From the NCBI GenBank assembly GCA_004299485.1, contig SCQP01000007.1, positions 142,623-206,622 of the forward strand: 64,000 nucleotides of DNA, in the 5' to 3' direction. The notes under the pieces were generated by a model, which saw nothing but the letters and a program-made list of their open reading frames with translations, made no database searches and was not told where the DNA came from. This document shows, piece after piece, positions 3,112 to 55,779 of this stretch. Within the stretch, counting starts at the first letter, position 1, and every line of letters begins with the position of its first letter. The translations under genes and the position numbers were made by a program. This DNA is from Acidobacteriota bacterium (GTDB lineage: Bacteria; Acidobacteriota; Terriglobia; Terriglobales; SCQP01).

Positions 3112-3128
3112 AGGTTCATTTTACTAAT

Positions 3129-3228
3129 CGCGGGCATCCAGCGTGGCTTCGCCACGCGGCCCGCTCTCCAAGGCCGCAAAACCGCTGCGCCGGGGACCCC
3201 TACGCCCCGGCTCCGCTTCGGCCCGGCG
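3129..3228 (+). repeat. Dispersed structured repeat, subfamily III, copy G
   Basis: ~85% identical by hand alignment to the reverse complement of 25747-25848. Contains hairpins GCGTGGC-ttc-GCCACGC and GCCGGGG-N9-CCCCGGC. Lies in the divergent yihY/DUF47-pit intergenic region. Confidence 0.8.
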
Positions 3229-20780: not shown

Positions 20781-23015
20781 TTAGGCGTGGGGATGGCCGC
20801 CACCACCGGGGCCGCGCGATACGTGCGGCGCAGAGTGGACGGCGGGGGCGCGATACGCCGGAGCGTGATACGCAGGTGCATGGTAAGCCGGGGCGCGGTA
20901 CGCGGGCGCGTGATACGCCGGAGCACGATACGTGGGCTCGTGGTACGCCGGAGCGCGGTAGGCGGGTTCACGGTAAGTGGGCTCGTGGTACGCCGGAGCG
21001 CGATAGGCCGGCTCCCGGTAAGCGGGCTGATGATAGGCCGGGGCTTGGTCACGCGGAGCCGAGACGATGGGATGGCCCACCTCAAGCGGCGGCCGGTAGC
21101 TGCCGCGCGGAGCACGCTCCTGCGGCGTAAAGCCGCGAGCCTCGGGCTGCTGATCCCGAGGCTGCGGGCGGAAGGTCCGCCATCCGCCCCCGCCGCCCGG
21201 TTTGCGGGGCGACGCGGAAGGACGGGGAGCGGCTTCGCGAGGCGCGGGTGAAGACTGGCGCGGCGTGAAGAAGTGCGACGCATTGCCGCGCGGAGCATTC
21301 TCGCGGGGCGCGGCGTTGCGCTGGCCGGGCTGCATGGCACGGGCATTGCCGTTGCCGAAACTCCGCCAACCGGAGCGTGCCGGGGGCGCGGAGCGCTCGG
21401 GGCGCGGCTGCGCCTGATGGGGTTGCACCTGCCGCAGCGAGCCGGAACTTTCAAAATGCTGCATCCGGCCCGTTGCGGCGGGAGCACGCGCCGGCTCGGC
21501 CGGCCGCGCGGTGCGGGTCGCAGGCGCACCACGCAGCGCCGTCTGCACGTGGGCGCGTTCCTGGGTAAACGTGGGCCGCGACATCACCGTCCCACGCTGC
21601 CCGAAGAAATGAGAAGCGGTATGCACGGGCGCGCGCCCGGGCCGCTCAAAGCGGCTGCTGGTGAGGCTGGCCCGCGTCGGAACCACCGGCAGCGTGCCGC
21701 CAAGCACCCGGCTGCCGCGGATTTCCGACGCCGTCACGTGCGAACGCGCGCCCATACCGCCGCGCGCAAAGCGCCCTTGCGGCACCCGGATCAGTGCCGT
21801 GCGCACGCGGGCGTTGGTGCGCAGATCGCGCAGATTCGAGTAGGCCACCCGCTCATGGCTCACGACCGCGAGCGGAGGCAGCACGCTCCGGCCGCGAATC
21901 ACGTTGATGTTGGTGATATTGACGTAGGTGACGTTAAAGGAGTTAAACCCGCCCCACCACGGCCGGAAGGGATCGCACGGCCCGATCGGTAGCCAGCCGA
22001 TGCTGCCAAAGCCCACGCCCACGCCAAAGCCGCCGCCCCAGCCGAAGAAGGAGACGTACGCCGGCGCCCAAATAGGCTGATAGAACGGCGTCACCGGCCC
22101 CGGCCACCACACCCAGTTGGCGCCATAGACGAACCAGCGGCCATAGTGATACGGCGCCCAGCCCCAGGGCTCATAGGAAACCCACGTCCAGCCCCAGTAG
22201 GGCTCCCACGTCCAGCGGCCATCGCTGTAGGGCGTCCAGCCGTTCTGATTGTCAGGAACCCAGACCTGGCCGTAGCCGGGAACCTCGTTCCAGTAACCGT
22301 AACCTTCGAGCGCCTGCGAGCCGGTGTAGTAGCGGTTGGCGTGATTGTAGGCTTGCGCTTCTTCTACGGCGCGGTCACGGTTCTCGTTCCACTGATCCCA
22401 GGAATCGCGTCCAGGAGCATCGCTGATCTGGTACTGCGGCGAATCGACGCCCTCAACCGTAATCATCTGTCCCGCGTTCAGCCGGGTGCTCCCCTGCGGC
22501 GTGCTGATCTCCGCTTCGCCACGGCGCACGATCACCTGCGTTTGGTTGTTGGAAGAAACCAGAATGCGGTAGACACCCGCCCGCTGCGGGTAAATGGCGA
22601 TGTTGGGCGTGTCGATTTCCGACGTCGCCTCAGCGCCCTTGAGCACAATGTAGTCGGCGAGGCCGGAACCGACCTGCACCTGGATATTCTTGCGCGAGAG
22701 ATTGACCAGATTCACGTCGGCGTTATCGCCCAGCCGGATCAGGTTGGCGTAGTCGATTTGCACTTCGGCGCGCGAACCCTCGCCGGCGGCTATCTTATCG
22801 CCGCTCAACAAGGGCGTATTGACCGCGCCCGCGACCCAATCGCCGCTATCGGCGCGCTGGGTGGAAACGTTGCCGCGGATGGCGCTCAGGTGCGCCACCA
22901 CGTCGTTCGAGACCGGCGGTTGGTTCTGATCCTGCTCCGGTCCCTGCGCCAAAGCCGTCCAGGCGAATAACCCAGCCAGCCCAAGTACCAGGAAACGCGA
23001 AATCGCTGCCTTCAT
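20781..23015 (-). CDS. Secreted FecR-domain / DUF6600 (YXWGXW-repeat) protein with a C-terminal P-A-Y-[RH]-x pentapeptide array
   Basis: Start moved to ATG 23015 (MKAAISRFLVLGLAGLFAWTALAQ signal peptide), preceded by GGAGGTG 6 nt upstream. W/Y/G-rich core YWGWTWVSYEPWGWAPYHYGRW. Confidence 0.75.
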   Translation of the reverse strand: MKAAISRFLVLGLAGLFAWTALAQGPEQDQNQPPVSNDVVAHLSAIRGNVSTQRADSGDWVAGAVNTPLLSGDKIAAGEGSRAEVQIDYANLIRLGDNADVNLVNLSRKNIQVQVGSGLADYIVLKGAEATSEIDTPNIAIYPQRAGVYRILVSSNNQTQVIVRRGEAEISTPQGSTRLNAGQMITVEGVDSPQYQISDAPGRDSWDQWNENRDRAVEEAQAYNHANRYYTGSQALEGYGYWNEVPGYGQVWVPDNQNGWTPYSDGRWTWEPYWGWTWVSYEPWGWAPYHYGRWFVYGANWVWWPGPVTPFYQPIWAPAYVSFFGWGGGFGVGVGFGSIGWLPIGPCDPFRPWWGGFNSFNVTYVNITNINVIRGRSVLPPLAVVSHERVAYSNLRDLRTNARVRTALIRVPQGRFARGGMGARSHVTASEIRGSRVLGGTLPVVPTRASLTSSRFERPGRAPVHTASHFFGQRGTVMSRPTFTQERAHVQTALRGAPATRTARPAEPARAPAATGRMQHFESSGSLRQVQPHQAQPRPERSAPPARSGWRSFGNGNARAMQPGQRNAAPRENAPRGNASHFFTPRQSSPAPREAAPRPSASPRKPGGGGGWRTFRPQPRDQQPEARGFTPQERAPRGSYRPPLEVGHPIVSAPRDQAPAYHQPAYREPAYRAPAYHEPTYREPAYRAPAYHEPTYRAPAYHAPAYRAPAYHAPAYHAPAYRAPAVHSAPHVSRGPGGGGHPHA
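20841..21045 (-). repeat. 15-bp tandem coding repeat (about 13 units) encoding PAY[RH][AEQ]
   Basis: Protein tail reads PAYHQPAYREPAYRAPAYHEPTYREPAYRAPAYHEPTYRAPAYHAPAYRAPAYHAPAYHAPAYRAPA. DNA shows period-15 GGCGCG(A/G)TA(C/G)GC-like units. Confidence 0.85.
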
Positions 23016-25746: not shown

Positions 25747-25848
25747 CCACGAGCCGGGCAGCGGAGCCGGGGCACAGGGGCCCCCGGCGAAGCGGCCGTG
25801 CGGCCTTAGAGAGCGGGCCGCGCGGCAGCGCCGCGCTGGGTGCCCGCG
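25747..25848 (-). repeat. Dispersed structured repeat, subfamily III, copy F (inverted relative to G)
   Basis: The reverse complement aligns with 3129-3228 over ~100 nt. Hairpin GCGCGGC-gct-GCCGCGC is equivalent to G's GCGTGGC-ttc-GCCACGC. Shares GCCGGGG-N9-CCCCGGC. Confidence 0.75.
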
Positions 25849-25930
25849 ATTAAGAAATGCTCCCTGGCCTCTGGCCTCTGGACCCTGGCATATGTCATAG
25901 TGCAGGCTGAATTCCTGGGAGGTTGATAAT

Positions 25931-31053: not shown

Positions 31054-33618
31054 ATGGCCGACTGGATCGATCCTCTCGCCGCCGACCTGCGCCAAGCCTG
31101 GCGCGGTCTGCGCAAGCGGCGGGCCTTTGCGCTGACCATCATCGCCATCCTGGCGCTCGGCCTTGGCGGCAGTACGCTGGTGTTCGGCTGGGTCAACGCG
31201 ACGCTGCTGCATCCGCTGGCCAATATTCCCGGCGCGAGCCGGCTCACGGCGGTCGAGACCGTGATGCCCGATGGCTCGTATCACACCACCTCGTATCTCG
31301 ACTACCGCGATTACCGCGACCAGAACACCGCATTTACCGGCCTCGCCGCAGCGGCCCTGCTCCCCGCGGACGTGGCACGGCCCAGCGCGCGCCAGCCCGA
31401 GCGCGCCTGGGGCATGATCGTCAGCGAAAACTATTTCCAGGTGCTCGGGATTCACGCGACGCTAGGCCGTGTCTCCACGCCCGCCGACGCCCACGGCCCG
31501 GGCTCGGATCCGGAAATCATCCTGAGCTACCGCTATTGGCGGCAGCGCTTTGGCGGCTCGCCGGGCGTCGTCGGCACGGTGCTCGACGTCGACCACCAGC
31601 CCTTCACCATAATGGGCGTCACGCCGCGCGGCTTCGAAGGCACGACGGTAGGCGTCCAGCCGCAGTATTACGTCCCGCTGATGATGGAGCCGCTGCTGCT
31701 CCCGCTCGAAGATTTGCACTATCGCGCGCCGGGCTTTCTGCACATGATCGGCCGGCTGAAGCCGGGCGTTACGGCCGCCGCCGCCAACCTCGAGATGCGG
31801 CGCCTGGCGGTGAGCCTTGCGGCGCAGTATCCCGCGACGAATCGCAACGTCGGCATCGCGGTCAGCCCTATCGGCGAGGCGCACTACGGCTTGCAGCCGT
31901 CGCTCGGCCCGGTGCTGCTGTTTCTGCTGCTGGCGATGGCGCTGGTGCTGGTCATCGGCTGCGCCAACGTGGCCACGCTGCTGCTGACGCGGGCCGCCGC
32001 GCGCTGGCGCGAGCAGGCGGTGCGCGCCGCGCTGGGCGCCAGCCGCGGACGCCTGTTGCGGCAGTCCCTCGCCGAGCACGGGTTAATGGCACTGTTGGGC
32101 GGCGCCGCAGGCCTGCTGCTCGCCTACGCCACAGGCGGCTGGCTGGCGGCGCTGCTGCCCTCCGGTGGCGTCCCGCTCGGCCTCTCGACCGGCTTGAGCG
32201 GCCGCGCGGTTTTATTCCTCGGGCTTGCCACCGTAGCCGTCGCGGCCTGGATGGTCGCGGCGCCCGCGCTGGCCTCCGCGCCACAATTGCTAGACGCGCT
32301 CAAAAGCGGCGATCGCGGCGCCATCGCCGGCCGTGCGCACCACCGCCTGCGGACCGCCCTGGTGGTGCTCGAAGCGACGCTGGCTTTTACCGTCCTTGTG
32401 ACCGCTGGTCTGGTGGCGCGCAGCCTGCAGCGGGCCCAGCAGACCGATCCCGGCTTTGCCACCCGCAACCTGCTCATCGCCTCGCTCGACCTGCGCAGCG
32501 CCGGCAGCAGCGACGCGCAAGCGGCCAATTTCTACGCCCGCTTGAACGACCGCGTCCGCATGCTGCCGGGCGTTGCGGCCGCGAGCTTCGAGCGCTGGCT
32601 GCCGCTCAGCGGCTCCGGCAACGGCTCGACCCGGCCGGCGATTGCCGGCTACGCCCAGGCGCCCGGCGAAGACATTGATATCGCCTACAACGCCGTCGGG
32701 CCGCAGTACTTCTCGACGATGCGCATACCGCGGCTGGCCGGCCGCGGCTTCACCGCCGCCGACCGCGCCGGCGCGCCGCTCGTCTGCATCGTGAACGAAT
32801 CCATGGCACAGCGCTACTGGCCCGGCGCAAGCCCCATCGGCCACCGCCTCAACAGTTGGGACCGCTGGTGGACGGTGGTCGGCGTCGTCCGTGACAGCCG
32901 CTTCGCCAGCCTGCGCGAGCCGCCCCGTCCGTTTTTGTATTTTCCCTTTTTGCAGAACCCCACGAGCGACGCCACGCTGGTGGTGCGAGCCTCTAGTGGT
33001 GCTCCGCTGGCGGCAACTTGGAGGAGCCCGGAGCGCCAGCGGGCGGACCCTGCCAAGAATCGAAGCCCGCACTCCAAACGACCATCGGGAGCGACCAGGG
33101 CAAATAGTGGCGAGCCACTGGCCCTCGCGTCCTCCATCCGCAACGCCGCGCGCGCGCTCGATGCCGGGGCGACGGTGTATGCGCTGCACTCGGGCGGTGC
33201 GGTACTGGAGGCGTCCCTCTTTGCCGAGCGCACCGCGGCGCAGCTCGGCCTGCTGCTCGCCGTGCTGGCGCTGCTGCTGGCGGCGATTGGCCTCTACGGC
33301 GTGTTGTCCTTCTCGGTGGCGCAGCGCATGCGCGAAATGGGCCTGCGCCTGGCGCTCGGCGCACAACCACAGCAGGTTTATCGCTCGGTCGTCGGCCGCG
33401 GTCTGGCGACAGTGGCCATCGGCATCGTCCTTGGCGCCGCCCTCGCCGCCGTCCTCGCGCGCACGCTCTCCGGCCTGCTCTTCGGCGTGACCGCAGCCGA
33501 CCCGCTCACCTGGGCCTCGGCCGCCGCCATCCTGCTCGCTCTCGCCCTCGCCGCCAGTTTCGCCCCTGCCCGCCGCGCCACCCGCGCCGATCCCGCCGCC
33601 GTGCTGCGCTGCGAATAG
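31054..33618 (+). CDS. MacB-like duplicated ABC permease (ADOP family, two FtsX domains) carrying a 37-aa repeat-derived in-frame insert
   Basis: 854 aa. N-terminal DLRQAWRGLRKRRAFALTIIAILALGLGGST and two FtsX TM blocks. The ORF stays open through the insert at 33007-33122. Confidence 0.85.
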   Translation: MADWIDPLAADLRQAWRGLRKRRAFALTIIAILALGLGGSTLVFGWVNATLLHPLANIPGASRLTAVETVMPDGSYHTTSYLDYRDYRDQNTAFTGLAAAALLPADVARPSARQPERAWGMIVSENYFQVLGIHATLGRVSTPADAHGPGSDPEIILSYRYWRQRFGGSPGVVGTVLDVDHQPFTIMGVTPRGFEGTTVGVQPQYYVPLMMEPLLLPLEDLHYRAPGFLHMIGRLKPGVTAAAANLEMRRLAVSLAAQYPATNRNVGIAVSPIGEAHYGLQPSLGPVLLFLLLAMALVLVIGCANVATLLLTRAAARWREQAVRAALGASRGRLLRQSLAEHGLMALLGGAAGLLLAYATGGWLAALLPSGGVPLGLSTGLSGRAVLFLGLATVAVAAWMVAAPALASAPQLLDALKSGDRGAIAGRAHHRLRTALVVLEATLAFTVLVTAGLVARSLQRAQQTDPGFATRNLLIASLDLRSAGSSDAQAANFYARLNDRVRMLPGVAAASFERWLPLSGSGNGSTRPAIAGYAQAPGEDIDIAYNAVGPQYFSTMRIPRLAGRGFTAADRAGAPLVCIVNESMAQRYWPGASPIGHRLNSWDRWWTVVGVVRDSRFASLREPPRPFLYFPFLQNPTSDATLVVRASSGAPLAATWRSPERQRADPAKNRSPHSKRPSGATRANSGEPLALASSIRNAARALDAGATVYALHSGGAVLEASLFAERTAAQLGLLLAVLALLLAAIGLYGVLSFSVAQRMREMGLRLALGAQPQQVYRSVVGRGLATVAIGIVLGAALAAVLARTLSGLLFGVTAADPLTWASAAAILLALALAASFAPARRATRADPAAVLRCE
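33010..33118 (+). repeat. Dispersed structured repeat, subfamily II, copy A (inside the ADOP permease CDS)
   Basis: 109 nt, ~89% identical (about 12 mismatches, hand alignment) to copy B at 33676-33784. Flanked by direct CTGGC at 33007-33011 and 33118-33122. Confidence 0.8.
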
Positions 33619-33675
33619 TGCAGAACCAGCATCGCCGCACCCCAGCCGGGCGTGCCGGTTGCGGCCTTTCCATTG

Positions 33676-33784
33676 GCGGCAGCTTTGAGGAGCCCTGGGC
33701 GCCAGCGTGCGGACCCTGCCGGCAATCGAAGCCCGCACTCCGAGCGACCAACGGGAGCGACCAGGGCAAAAAGTGGCGAGCCAC
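33676..33784 (+). repeat. Dispersed structured repeat, subfamily II, copy B (intergenic)
   Basis: GCGGCAGCTTTGAGGAGCCCTGGGCGCCAGCGTGCGGACCCTGCC...GTGGCGAGCCAC. Lies between the ADOP stop and the next gene's start. Confidence 0.8.
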
Positions 33785-39678: not shown

Positions 39679-39756
39679 GCGCCTGTAGCTCAGAAGGAAC
39701 AGAGCAGCGGTTTCCTAAACCGCGTGTCGGGGGTTCGATTCCCTCCAGGCGCACCA
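39679..39756 (+). tRNA. tRNA-Arg (anticodon CCT), CCA encoded
   Basis: Hand-folded cloverleaf: acceptor GCGCCTG/CAGGCGC, D-arm GCTC-AGAAGGAACA-GAGC, anticodon stem GCGGT/ACCGC with loop TTCCTAA, variable GTGTC, T-arm GGGGG-TTCGATT-CCCTC, discriminator A, CCA. Confidence 0.9.
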
Positions 39757-42929: not shown

Positions 42930-44648
42930 ATGCAAAAATTTTGTCTTCCCGGGGTGCTGCTGGCCGCTGCCCTGGCCATGGCGTGCGCAGGCGCAGCGCC
43001 AGCGCCCGCCGCGGCGGTGGCCAGTGCGCCGCAACGGCCCAAGCCAACGCCCGCGCCAGGACCGCCGCCACCAGTCCTGGACACATATGGGGGCCTGAGC
43101 AGCGTCACGGCAGGCACAGCTACGGGCTTTTTCCGCGTGCAGAAAGTGGGCGAGCGCTGGGTCTTCGTAGATCCGCTCGGCCACCCCTTCTGGATGCTGG
43201 GCGTGTTCGCTGTGGATACGAACACCGACACCGCCGCCGGAACCATCTACACCATCGGCAAGTACGGCAGCCGCGCCACCTGGGGCGAGCAGGCGGTGCG
43301 CCGGCTGCGCACCTGGGGTTTCAACTCGACCGCGGAATATTCCTCGGCGTATGTGGTTCCGGTAAACAATGACGGCAGTTACGAAACCACGGATCCGATG
43401 CCCTGGGTCGCCATCATGCGGCCCTCCTACTACAGCCTGCGCGACAGCGGTGGCTATGCGCCGCAGCCGGTCAAGGATCTGGTCGCCGGTCTCGATAGCG
43501 TGTATAGAAACTATCGCGGCGATACGCTGCCCGATGTTTTTGACCCCGATTTTGCGATGTATGCCAACGCTTCGCTGGCCGCGCAGACCAGTGCCGCAGA
43601 AGCGGCCTCGAGCTGGCTGATCGGCACGGCGGTGGACGATCTCGATGACCTCTGGGGCTTCGGCCCCAGCCCGGACTTGCCGGCCGCGCGCACCTCCTCA
43701 AACATCGGCTGGATCGCGCTTTGCACCAATTTCCAGCAGACCGCCAACGCGCAACTGGGCGAGATCTATACCGATCCGGAGGTCTACACCAAATACGCGC
43801 TGGCCAACTGGCTGCAGGCCAAATATGGCAGCATTGCGGCGCTCGATGCCGCCTGGGGCGCCAACTACACCAGCTTCGGCGACGCCGGCGGCTTCGGTAC
43901 CGGAACTGGCCTGCTCGATGAGGACGGGCGCGACCCCTGGGTGGGAGCGGACGACGTGGCGTTGCGCGGCGCGAGCGCGGCCGTGCGCGCCGACCTGAAT
44001 GCCTTTCTCGCGGTGTACGCACAGAAGTATTTTTCAATTGTGAGCGCGGCGCTGCGCAAGTACCGGCCCAATCAGTTGATCTTCGGCCCCTGCACGCTGA
44101 ATAGCTGGAACGGCATCAGCCGTGCGGCGATTCTGGCGGCGGCGGGGCAGTACACCGATGTAATTCAGGCCAGCATGGCGACCCAGCAGGTGTTTGACCT
44201 GAGCCTGCAGGAGGCAGGCGACCGCCCCTTCGTGACCTGGACGGGCATGCCGGCGAACCCCGATTCGGACCTGTCGGCCTATCCCAATCCCAACGAGCCG
44301 GATGTGTACAGCACCCAGGCCGCGCGCGCCACGGCCTATACGGCCGCGATTAAAGCCGATTTCGCCTACACCGGCTCAACCGCGGCGGGCAATCTGGCTG
44401 GCAGCCAGAATGTCGCCGGCAGCAAATTCTGGGCGTGGACGGATTCCTGGGGCGAGCGCACGAATTGGGGCCTGGTGACATTTCTGGATAATCCTTACGA
44501 TGGCGTGGCGGATGGAATTGCGGCGGGTACCGACGCCTGGGGCTACGCGACTGGCGGCGAAGCCGCGAATTACGGCAACTTCATCGGACCAGCGCAGCAG
44601 GCCAACGCTGCCGTGATCGCCTCATTCGCGGCCGCGCTCGGGCACTGA
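42930..44648 (+). CDS. Putative glycoside-hydrolase-like lipoprotein (TIM-barrel, GH5/GH42-like)
   Basis: Start at ATG 42930 (MQKFCLPGVLLAAALAMAC lipobox). P-rich linker, FWMLGV...RLRTWGFNSTAEYSS. Family assignment is tentative. Confidence 0.55.
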   Translation: MQKFCLPGVLLAAALAMACAGAAPAPAAAVASAPQRPKPTPAPGPPPPVLDTYGGLSSVTAGTATGFFRVQKVGERWVFVDPLGHPFWMLGVFAVDTNTDTAAGTIYTIGKYGSRATWGEQAVRRLRTWGFNSTAEYSSAYVVPVNNDGSYETTDPMPWVAIMRPSYYSLRDSGGYAPQPVKDLVAGLDSVYRNYRGDTLPDVFDPDFAMYANASLAAQTSAAEAASSWLIGTAVDDLDDLWGFGPSPDLPAARTSSNIGWIALCTNFQQTANAQLGEIYTDPEVYTKYALANWLQAKYGSIAALDAAWGANYTSFGDAGGFGTGTGLLDEDGRDPWVGADDVALRGASAAVRADLNAFLAVYAQKYFSIVSAALRKYRPNQLIFGPCTLNSWNGISRAAILAAAGQYTDVIQASMATQQVFDLSLQEAGDRPFVTWTGMPANPDSDLSAYPNPNEPDVYSTQAARATAYTAAIKADFAYTGSTAAGNLAGSQNVAGSKFWAWTDSWGERTNWGLVTFLDNPYDGVADGIAAGTDAWGYATGGEAANYGNFIGPAQQANAAVIASFAAALGH

Positions 44649-45260
44649 CGCCTGGAGCACGCGCAGCATCAGTTCATGGCGGCTGGGCACACGGTAGCGG
44701 TGCAGCAGATGGGAGACGTGGAATTTGACCGTGCGTTCGGAAATCCCCAGGCCGGCCGCGATCTCCTTATTGCTGCGGCGCGACAGGATGCCGTCGAGCA
44801 CCTGCCGTTCGCGCGCGCTCAGGCCGGCCATCGCCGGCGCGAGCCGCGCGCCGGGAAGCTGAGTCAGCAACTCGTCGATGAACCCGGCGAGCAACAAGCG
44901 CGGCGCCCAGTAGGCGCCGGCGGCGACGGCGCGCAAAGCCCGCGCCAGATCGCGGCCGAGCACGTCATAGCTGACGAGGCCGCGCACCCCTTCCCGTAAC
45001 AAGGTGAACGCCCGATTCCGGTCGAAGGCCTCGGCGACGGCCACAACCCGAGGCTGCACGGGGAGCCGTACCAGCACGCGCTCCAGCAACTCAGGGTTAT
45101 GGGCATCAATCGCCCATGCAGCCGAGGGCAGCAGCTTCAGCCGCTCGACCTGGCCGGCATCCGGCAACAGGAACGCATGCACCACAAACTCCCGCTGCGG
45201 GAGCTGCAGGCGCATGCGTTCCAGCATGACGGGATGGGCGGCAACGAGGGAAACTTCCAT
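44622..45260 (-). CDS. LuxR/FixJ-type HTH regulator with an atypical receiver-like N-domain
   Basis: Start at internal ATG 45260 (MEVSLVAAHPVML...). C-terminal LSARERQVLDGILSRRSNKEIAAGLGISERTVKFHVSHLL. The track ORF's extra 80 codons are repeat copy C read antisense. Confidence 0.8.
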   Translation of the reverse strand: MEVSLVAAHPVMLERMRLQLPQREFVVHAFLLPDAGQVERLKLLPSAAWAIDAHNPELLERVLVRLPVQPRVVAVAEAFDRNRAFTLLREGVRGLVSYDVLGRDLARALRAVAAGAYWAPRLLLAGFIDELLTQLPGARLAPAMAGLSARERQVLDGILSRRSNKEIAAGLGISERTVKFHVSHLLHRYRVPSRHELMLRVLQASVPERGRE

Positions 45261-45348
45261 GCGGCGAACGGACAATCCGCTGCACGCCGCGTTCCAAAGC
45301 GGAAGGACGGCGGAATAGTGCAAAAGCTTGCAGCAAAACGACACTGCT

Positions 45349-45500
45349 CGCGGCAACTTGGAGACGCCATGAGCACCTGCGGGCGTCCGTTGCCGGGGAG
45401 TGAAGCCCAGCCACAGCCCGACCAGCGCCGGGGCCCCCAAGCCGCACGCGGCTTGGGGTGGCAGCGGGAGGGCGGCTCCAGCAAGAGGTGGCTGTGCCAC
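45349..45500 (+). repeat. Dispersed structured repeat, subfamily I, copy C (152 nt)
   Basis: 150/152 identical to 46986-47137. Hairpins GGCAAC..GACGCC-N13-GGCGTC.GTTGCC, CCCCAAGCCGC-ac-GCGGCTTGGGG and terminal GTGGC-tgt-GCCAC. Confidence 0.9.
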
Positions 45501-46885: not shown

Positions 46886-47263
46886 TTACTTGGCGCCGGG
46901 CGGAGTGCGGAAGGCCACGTTGACCCAGTTCCAGGTGTTGATGGCAACGATGGCCATGGTGAGCGCGATGAGTTCCTGCTCGTTACGCGGCAACTTGGAG
47001 ACGCCATGAGCACCTGCGGGCGTCCGTTGCCGGGGAGTGAAGCCCAGCCACAGCCCGACCAGCGCCGGGGCCCCCAAGCCGCAGGCGGCTTGGGGTGGCA
47101 GTGGGAGGGCGGCTCCAGCAAGAGGTGGCTGTGCCACGAACTCGCGCCGGGCCTCTTCGTACACGGCCTCGGGAACGTGGTCGACGGCGACCAGCGTCAG
47201 CGCCTCGGTCCAGGTGAGAGCGGCGTGCTCGCGCGGCGGGCATCGGGTGAAGCAGCGCGGTAA
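46886..47263 (-). pseudogene. Relic of a carboxymuconolactone decarboxylase (AhpD-like) family gene: C-terminal half only, interrupted by repeat copy D
   Basis: Minus strand reads ...REHAALTWTEALTLVAVDHVPEAVYEEARREF-[51 aa from the repeat]-NEQELIALTMAIVAINTWNWVNVAFRTPPGAK*. In-frame TGA at 47266-47264. The CxxC-containing N-terminal half is absent. Confidence 0.65.
46986..47137 (+). repeat. Dispersed structured repeat, subfamily I, copy D (152 nt, inside the CMD relic)
   Basis: Differs from copy C only at two positions (GCACGC vs GCAGGC hairpin apex; GGCAGCGGG vs GGCAGTGGG). Confidence 0.9.
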
Positions 47264-55649: not shown

Positions 55650-55681
55650 GGCGCTTCAGGGTTAGGATAGCCAAATACGCC

Positions 55682-55779
55682 CTGGGCACCAGCGGGTGTC
55701 CGTTGCCGGGAGCGAAACCCAGCCACAGCCCGGCCAGCGCCGGGGCCCCCAAGCCGCACGCCGTCTACCGGCGGCTCGT
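55682..55779 (+). repeat. Dispersed structured repeat, subfamily I-like, copy E (5'- and 3'-truncated, diverged)
   Basis: CTGGGCACCAGCGGGTGTCCGTTGCCGGGAGCGAAACCCAGCCACAGCCCGGCCAGCGCCGGGGCCCCCAAGCCGCACGC aligns with the core of C/D. Its 5' CCCTGGGC resembles copy B, and its 3' CGGCTCGTG is shared with copy F. Confidence 0.7.

Follow-up and report, generated by a model that had tools for sequence, protein, structure and literature searches.

An in-frame copy of a dispersed 111-nt repeat in an ADOP-family permease gene of Terriglobales

INTRODUCTION

Selfish repeats that persist in frame within protein-coding genes have mainly been discussed for Rickettsia, where the usual explanation is weak selection in a reductive intracellular genome. 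Here we describe a repeat of 111 nt in a 64,000-nt stretch of DNA (“the window”) from an Acidobacteriota bacterium of the order Terriglobales (assembly GCA_004299485.1, contig SCQP01000007.1, positions 142,623 to 206,622); one copy of it, copy A, lies in frame within a gene for an ADOP-family permease, and a second, copy B, lies just downstream. The closest described systems are the Rickettsia palindromic elements (RPEs), of which the families RPE-1 to RPE-10 have been reviewed (PMC10969869). They are dispersed repeats of ~100-150 bp, found in intergenic DNA and, unusually often, in frame in unrelated conserved genes; about half of the RPE-1 copies are intragenic, no transposase is known, and a target-site duplication (TSD) is not part of their definition (PMC10969869). 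[quoted passage not shown] We could not find any description of such elements in the literature on Acidobacteria, and the repeat apparently represents an undescribed RPE-like family.

RESULTS

Two Copies of One Element in the Window

Copy A occupies positions 33008-33118 on the forward strand, within codons 652-689 of the permease gene; its first nucleotide is base 2 of codon 652 and its last is base 1 of codon 689, with a CTG leucine codon restored at both junctions. Copy B (33674-33784, forward strand) is intergenic and starts 556 nt past the end of copy A. It lies in the 235-nt spacer between the permease stop codon (33616-33618) and the ATG of the next gene (33854), beginning 56 nt beyond the former and ending 70 nt short of the latter. 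The copies are 89.2% identical over exactly 111 nt (BLAST), a match far beyond chance, and a repeat search of the window paired 33003-33118 with 33669-33784 at 88% over 116 nt. Compared with the subfamily consensus, copy A is 92.8% identical (nhmmer E 1.8e-30) and copy B 96.4%, and each is recovered by the nhmmer family profile at E ~1e-30; a 17-mer common to both has no third occurrence in the window. An initial annotation of the window, made from its letters and open reading frames (ORFs), had already reported a copy ~89% identical some 560 bp downstream, as these figures bear out. It had drawn the genic repeat at 33007-33122: the in-frame insert of 37 amino acids stands, and the element proper is narrower.

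Read in the element's +2 frame, copy A encodes (L)AATWRSPERQRADPAKNRSPHSKRPSGATRANSGEP, and the permease around it reads ...VVRASSGAPLA + ATWRSPERQRADPAKNRSPHSKRPSGATRANSGEPLA + LASSIR..., the left part also appearing as TLVVRASSGAPLA. Peptides from the insert or its junctions include SPERQRADPAK and PSGATRANSGEPLALASSIR.

The Host Permease and the Evidence for Insertion

The host gene (31054-33618, forward strand) is an uninterrupted ORF of 2565 nt and encodes an intact 854-residue permease of the duplicated MacB/FtsX type (P0001). The protein is identical to NCBI TAN23067.1, from a metagenome-assembled genome (MAG) labelled “Acidobacteria bacterium”; exact-protein look-ups of P0001, and of a sulfite reductase from the same MAG that is discussed below (P0123), found nothing on record. 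With the ADOP profile TIGR03434 the permease scores 786.8 bits against a cutoff of 622.3, aligning as two stretches that flank the insert, and Pfam places two MacB_PCD and two FtsX domains on it. An AlphaFold2 model based on 118 homologues (mean predicted local distance difference test score, pLDDT, 91.1; pTM 0.88) found its best fold matches in the PDB, using Foldseek, in YbbP of Escherichia coli (9ge6_A, E 1e-16) and in MacB. The permease shares with these type VII ABC-transporter permeases both the predicted fold and the duplicated architecture of a transmembrane (TM) segment, a periplasmic domain and three further TM segments; it differs from them in a predicted 37-residue disordered loop in the second periplasmic domain, unique among the members examined.

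The segment encoded by copy A is missing from 117 of the 117 other ADOP homologues, in alignments of 15 and then 118 sequences. The region of residues 640-705, which holds 66 residues in P0001, holds 25-31 in those homologues, among which the loop at the insertion site varies in length. An empty site could be seen in the DNA of the two closest homologues (L057 and L058, 66% and 64% identical), which read, with a slash at the junction, ...GGTGATCCGC/TGGCGCTG... (TGGCG following the junction) and ...GGCGATCCAC/TCAGCG.... The G+C content of third codon positions (GC3) is 0.65 in the insert vs 0.87 in the gene on either side. Taken together, these observations show the 37 residues to be an insertion into the permease. 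This was the central proposal of the initial annotation, which had an in-frame repeat inserted in the second extracytoplasmic loop of an ADOP/MacB-like permease and suggested both a search for the empty site among orthologs and a structure prediction; the two-stretch profile alignment and the homologues that lack the segment agree with it.

In the AlphaFold2 model, residues 652-684 are the sole segment with pLDDT below 50 and are drawn as coil. The insert is placed between a β-strand (residues 639-646) and an α-helix (688-702) of the second periplasmic domain, so that in this prediction, made for this one host, the encoded peptide forms a disordered surface loop and leaves the fold undisturbed. 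The next TM segment had been expected about 60 residues after the insert; the model puts the start of that helix at H723, ~35 residues after. Nor does the gene look pseudogenised, a state that the earlier proposal regarded as incompatible with it: the frame is open and, downstream of the insert, the protein keeps all residues that are invariant in the family. The N-terminal and C-terminal parts are 66.8% and 65.7% identical to the closest homologue and, because they are equally close to it, the gene is not a chimera joined at the repeat.

The Same Element in Unrelated Genes

A protein-level search with the five stop-free consensus translations of the element, concatenated, returned 21 more predicted proteins carrying the element's peptide. 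The ORF-embedded element is found in ~26 predicted proteins, in four reading frames and on both strands. Several of the hosts belong to the window's own MAG (the same accession series as the permease), in which at least eight ORF-embedded copies mark the element as a multi-copy dispersed repeat. The hosts are unrelated, conserved proteins, and in at least six of them a known domain is visibly split or lengthened: a NirA-like sulfite reductase, a VOC/PhnB protein, ThiE, Ham1/RdgB, a DUF4147 kinase and the ADOP permease itself. It is in this respect that the likeness to RPEs drawn in the initial annotation holds. These further hosts, which lay beyond the reach of that annotation, support its reading more strongly than the checks it had proposed.

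Several hosts show the insertion clearly. In the Terriglobales MAG TC-S bin.137, a copy at L008:4683-4793 (L numbers denote the fetched loci) lies inside a NirA-like sulfite/nitrite reductase on the opposite strand; against PDB 1zj8, residues 214-263 of the query correspond to chain residues 240-250, leaving ~39 extra residues, and a homologue 79% identical is without them. The next copy on this contig (L008:5847-5957, continued in L022) splits a VOC/PhnB-type Pfam domain into positions 2-82 and 82-116, and the Pfam domains of the ThiE and Ham1/RdgB hosts are likewise split. Inside a DUF4147/MOFRL protein of L045 there is a 144-nt variant of the element. For the TIGR04053 radical SAM/SPASM protein of L055, removal of the 37 residues fuses the alignments to the related AhbD and NirJ profiles into one stretch; an alignment of this protein to the PDB left the insert region uncovered. 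Further hosts are RibA, HycI, an ArsR regulator, HigB, and PIN and AHSA1-like proteins.

The sulfite reductase encoded in the window's MAG (P0123, TAN22733.1) carries a different insert of ~32 residues, at residues ~213-247, in the exact loop where the bin.137 ortholog carries the 111-nt element. Its peptide resembles a repeat found in L032:2581-2842 and L039:5272-6427 (tblastn E ~1e-5), and two repeat families have apparently inserted into this loop independently of each other.

Use of the reading frames is uneven, with ~9 cases each for +2 (AAAWRSPERQ...) and +0 (WRQLGG...), 5 or 6 for -0 (VARHFLPW...), one for -1 and none for -2. Among ~23 distinct DNA copies with a context that could be judged, 5 are clearly intragenic and the remainder intergenic, the latter often directly 5' of a start codon (L003a, L003b, L008a, L025b, L026a, L039 and L037). 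The copy at L008:3526-3636 adjoins a CysG-like TP_methylase/CbiX gene whose sole possible start codons lie within or upstream of the element, and at L003:492-602, upstream of a DUF1902 gene, the boundary of the element creates an ATG; to these two genes the element may supply N-terminal extensions or start codons.

Extent, Ends and Variants of the Repeat Family

A 19-mer common to copies A and B was scanned over the GTDB species, each represented by one genome, and JGI metagenomes were scanned with a version of it degenerate at one base; both are single exact-pattern scans anchored in the element's 3' part. True copies were confined to Acidobacteria in these scans, and most of the matches elsewhere were set aside as chance matches. 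Copies were found in bin.137 (L003, L008, L010, L015, L017 and L022), in a Terracidiphilus MAG (L009) and in three related metagenomes (L025-L055), with four further copies on contigs fetched via host proteins. In total there are ~25 full 111-nt copies from at least five assemblies or metagenomes, all of the form TGGCGGCA...GCGAGCCAC.

In alignments of 25 copies the ends of the element are sharp (TGGCGGCA(G/A)CTTGGAG...AAAAAGTGGCGAGCCAC), with the termini TGGCGGCARCTTGGAG...RGTGGCGAGCCAC bounding it, and nearly all full copies are exactly 111 nt long, that is 3 x 37 nt, at ~70% G+C. Within the window, the terminus motifs occur only at short copies. Two subfamilies can be distinguished, 1a from the window, bin.137 and Terracidiphilus and 1b from the metagenomes, and the 3' 40 nt are nearly invariant across them. 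The 144-nt variant (L037:612-755, L045:1380-1522 and L045:2682-2825, one of them in frame in the DUF4147/MOFRL gene) contains, at a CTTGCC direct repeat, an inserted hairpin module of 33 nt (CTTGCCCGCCTCGCGCCGCCACAGCGGGGCGGG), and its length is still a multiple of three. Other copies are truncated at the 5' end with the exact 3' end GCGAGCCAC intact (L010:956-1002, 1662-1710 and 2401-2456; L015:3512-3544); such variable truncation may be a clue to copying primed at the 3' end, or may reflect the bias of our searches to the 3' part of the element.

A longer relative, family 2, is present in the window itself. A 151-nt copy at 45350-45500 (forward strand) has the termini GCGGCAACTTGGAG...GGTGGCTGTGCCAC and matches the family-1 profile at E 2e-10; a second copy at 46987-47137 (forward strand) is 99% identical to it, and a partial copy, comprising the internal part only, lies at 55676-55761 (forward strand; E 7e-4 against the family-1 profile). 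The two subfamilies, the 144-nt variant and the 151-nt relative have common termini. Family 2 has an extra internal module that forms a perfect hairpin (CCCCAAGCCGC...GCGGCTTGGGG). A LuxR-type ORF on the minus strand and a phosphoribosyltransferase ORF have the full copies at their 5' ends or upstream of them, and one predicted ORF, at 44622-45500 on the minus strand, begins with a GTG made of the last three bases of the element.

Flanking Sequences of the Copies

The sequence CTGGC is found twice, at 33007-33011 and 33118-33122, with a spacing of 111 nt, and the initial annotation had read the pair as consistent with a target duplication. The pair is present and its interpretation changes: the conserved 5' end of the element is TGGC and its conserved 3' base is C, and the CTGGC repeat arises because the 3' flank happens to begin with TGGC (33119-33122, forward strand), repeating the element's first four bases as a 4-nt microhomology. 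No fixed duplication is seen at the other copies. At four of the 25 copies, the 3' flank opens with a repeat of at least 6 nt of the copy's own 5' end, where 0.52 copies would be expected under the null (p ~0.0003); the repeated stretches, of 6-9 nt, are TGGCGG in two copies, TGGTCGC in a third (that copy's own variant start) and GCGGCAGCT. The 3'-flank repeat is a variable microhomology in a minority of copies and no transposase-type TSD.

On the other side, the native left flank of copy A, TAGTGGTGCTCCGC (32994-33007, forward strand; encoding SSGAP), matches the element's 3' end, TAGTGGCGAGCCAC (SGEP), at 10 of 14 positions. Similarity of the left flanks to the 3' end gave p=0.007 in one test and was not significant in an exact-match test. 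We rejected it as a feature of the element, the 10/14 match of copy A being explained by a native SG(D/A)PLA motif of the permease family. Because the left flank encodes this motif, in the model it is the element-encoded SGEP that now occupies the turn just before the helix.

Absence of a Palindromic Fold

We could not identify a palindromic sequence or a stable hairpin fold in the element. Fold energies were no better than those of shuffled sequences, for RNA (z -1.0 and -1.5) as for DNA (z +0.34, -0.46 and -1.11); the RNAalifold covariation term was +0.84, with a compensatory change in 1 of 22 pairs, and the two subfamilies favour different stems. The palindromic part of the likeness to RPEs is therefore lost. 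Neither copy has a match in Rfam, at gathering thresholds or at E up to 10. The consensus holds neither a GTAG or CGTC head of the kind found in repetitive extragenic palindromic (REP) sequences nor a palindrome of 20-40 nt.

Two other identities were tried and rejected. On the minus strand, TTCGATT resembles a tRNA T-arm and a 3' GCCGCCA is also present; no tRNA or tmRNA model matches, and we regard the resemblance as coincidence. Integron attC-like sites were considered for L008, where three same-strand copies lie ~1160 nt apart; the copies are in, or at the starts of, ordinary genes, and the RYYYAAC/GTTRRRY cores are absent from the element copies.

Other Features of the Window

The window contains a 98-nt inverted repeat pair (3120-3217 and 25760-25857, 84% identical) with internal hairpins of its own, such as CCGGGGACCCCTACGCCCCGG; the pair has no relation to the 111-nt element, and no more copies of it turned up in the fetched loci. 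At 20814-21068 on the minus strand, tandem 15-nt units encode (PAYRA/PAYHE/PTYRE)n pentapeptide repeats. A tRNA gene at 39679-39753 (RF00005, 64.5 bits) is the sole Rfam match in the window.

DISCUSSION

We consider it highly probable that copy A belongs to a dispersed, non-autonomous 111-nt repeat of Terriglobales which inserted into the coding sequence of an ADOP permease and persists there as a tolerated loop. The reading frame survives because the length is 3 x 37 nt and because a sequence of ~70% G+C rarely gives stops. The gene thereby encodes 37 extra hydrophilic residues, predicted to be looped out as a disordered segment of the second periplasmic MacB-type domain, with the transporter fold, and probably its function too, left intact. 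Given an uninterrupted ORF, the retention of conserved residues and the other hosts that are single-copy housekeeping genes, the insert is presumably translated and tolerated; it is most likely a near-neutral passenger and not a functional module. Most intragenic insertions would be purged; what survives would be insertions into permissive loops, in frames whose peptides are hydrophilic. Spread would depend on an activity acting in trans that leaves no fixed target duplication, with sites followed by bases similar to the element's 5' end (TGGCGG-like) weakly preferred. Such a preference hints at a circular or tandem intermediate that could integrate via short homology; the 5'-truncated copies, from searches biased to the 3' part of the element, would also be compatible with copying primed at the 3' end.

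Several points weigh against this reading. All of the sequences come from MAGs or metagenome contigs, and translation of the insert and function of the permease are predictions from sequence and model. The searched collections hold no permease ortholog above 66% identity, and no presence/absence polymorphism was seen in them; because there is no closer ortholog, the insertion cannot be dated. The microhomology signal at the 3' flank is carried by four copies. The flanks of 25 copies show no common duplication that would amount to a fixed-length TSD, terminal inverted repeats (TIRs) are limited to TGGC...GCCA (4 nt), and the left-flank bases vary among copies, with no conserved target motif of the IS200/IS605 type. 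We could not identify a transposase, a recombinase or an autonomous partner in the window, in plasmids or in viral contigs; the viral contig scan gave 0 matches and a plasmid BLAST no match. Without TIRs or a fixed TSD, the element is not a classical MITE. The idea that the repeat is designed to be compatible with coding was also rejected: at 70% G+C, five open frames of six are nothing unusual (P ~0.18-0.20), and in subfamily 1b only three are open. Survival in genes is favoured only by the 3n length and by the richness in G+C.

An alternative is that the repeat works chiefly in cis or as RNA, for instance as a small RNA, a terminator or a 5' regulatory leader, its genic copies being incidental. 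The many intergenic copies directly 5' of start codons would suit such a role, as would the near invariance of the 3' 40 nt and the weak hairpin followed by a T-run with which the minus-strand element opens. We nevertheless think it unlikely, since the element has no Rfam match, its fold energies are no better than those of shuffled sequences, it shows no covariation, the stems differ between the subfamilies, and copies occur in both orientations relative to genes.

We give about as little credence to the proposal that the insertion inactivated the permease, leaving a young pseudogene with its frame open by chance. ADOP genes are highly paralogous, so that the loss of one would be cheap; seven of the eight nucleotide substitutions that separate copy A from the consensus are non-synonymous; and the function of the protein is itself a prediction from sequence and model. 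Against this, the ORF is intact over 2565 nt with a GC3 of 0.87 on both sides of the insert, all invariant residues are kept, the insert falls in a length-variable loop with the remaining fold modelled confidently, and the same element is tolerated in the single-copy housekeeping enzymes ThiE, RibA and sulfite reductase.

It is very unlikely that the insert is an assembly artefact or a chimera, produced by a false join at the repeat when the MAG was assembled. The L008 and L022 contigs do end inside a copy, as might be expected where a repeat troubles assembly. Yet both flanks of copy A belong to the same gene, in the same frame and equally close to the nearest homologue, the 89% identity of copies A and B makes them too divergent to collapse at usual k-mer sizes, and precise 111-nt in-frame insertions recur in independent assemblies from different projects. 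A diversity-generating retroelement with copies A and B as its variable and template repeats, or some other gene-specific cassette or recombination system for the permease C-terminus, is hardly credible despite the arrangement of one genic copy and one just downstream, both ~110 nt and in the same orientation, for the differences between the copies are not restricted to adenine (they include G/T, G/C and T/A), the adjacent ORFs lack a reverse transcriptase domain (a downstream ORF of 791 residues has no Pfam match), the element is dispersed over unrelated genes and genomes, and the C-terminal part of the permease is not of different ancestry.

Insertion of a tolerated, dispersed repeat remains our preferred explanation of copy A, and a wider proposal can be attached to it, one that we hold tentatively and with doubt slightly the stronger: that Terriglobales harbour an undescribed family or superfamily of mobile repeats of 111-151 nt, with conserved termini and optional hairpin modules, which have colonised genes on the scale of RPEs and given housekeeping enzymes and transporters disordered loops specific to the lineage, possibly through a TSD-less, microhomology-guided mobility, by way of a circular or tandem intermediate or of copying primed at the 3' end, unlike the characterised pathways. 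The phenomenon is met here in G+C-rich, large-genome environmental Acidobacteria, and in single-copy enzymes (ThiE, RibA, sulfite reductase and RdgB) as well as in an ADOP permease. Repeat insertion may then be a general and under-noticed source of new surface loops in bacterial proteins, and the family offers an independent system for asking which sites and reading frames tolerate insertion. Annotation and structure-prediction pipelines should expect lineage-specific disordered inserts of 37 residues, and contig breaks, in acidobacterial MAGs. Since there are neither TIRs nor a fixed TSD, the mechanism of mobilisation becomes a testable question.

Comparison with Known Systems

The element can be set beside three groups of known repeats. 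Like the RAYT-mobilised REP sequences and bacterial interspersed mosaic elements (BIMEs), and like the palindrome-associated transposable elements (PATEs) derived from IS200/IS605, it has no TSD, short G+C-rich hairpins at or near its ends, and optional hairpin modules. Unlike them, it has no 20-40-nt palindrome, no GTAG/CGTC head and, at the left junction, no conserved target tetranucleotide, and it is also found outside extragenic space. With the MITEs that have in-frame intragenic copies it shares small size, a non-coding, multi-copy and non-autonomous nature, occasional translational fusions to host ORFs, and deletion and insertion derivatives with common termini; it differs from MITEs in that its TIR amounts to TGGC...GCCA, its TSD is not fixed and we found no related autonomous insertion sequence.

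The RPEs come closest. Like them, the element is short and dispersed, lies in frame in unrelated genes, encodes a peptide that appears compatible with the host fold, and has no known transposase. The differences are in setting and degree: its hosts are free-living-type Terriglobales of 66% G+C, whereas Rickettsia are AT-rich and obligately intracellular; a palindromic fold could not be measured in it; at least four reading frames, over the two strands, are used, whereas each RPE family has one conserved peptide; and ~1/5 of its distinct placeable DNA copies are intragenic, vs about half for RPE-1. By this comparison the element would be of the same kind as the RPEs, a likeness set by description rather than by sequence and one that lays no claim to membership of the named RPE families.

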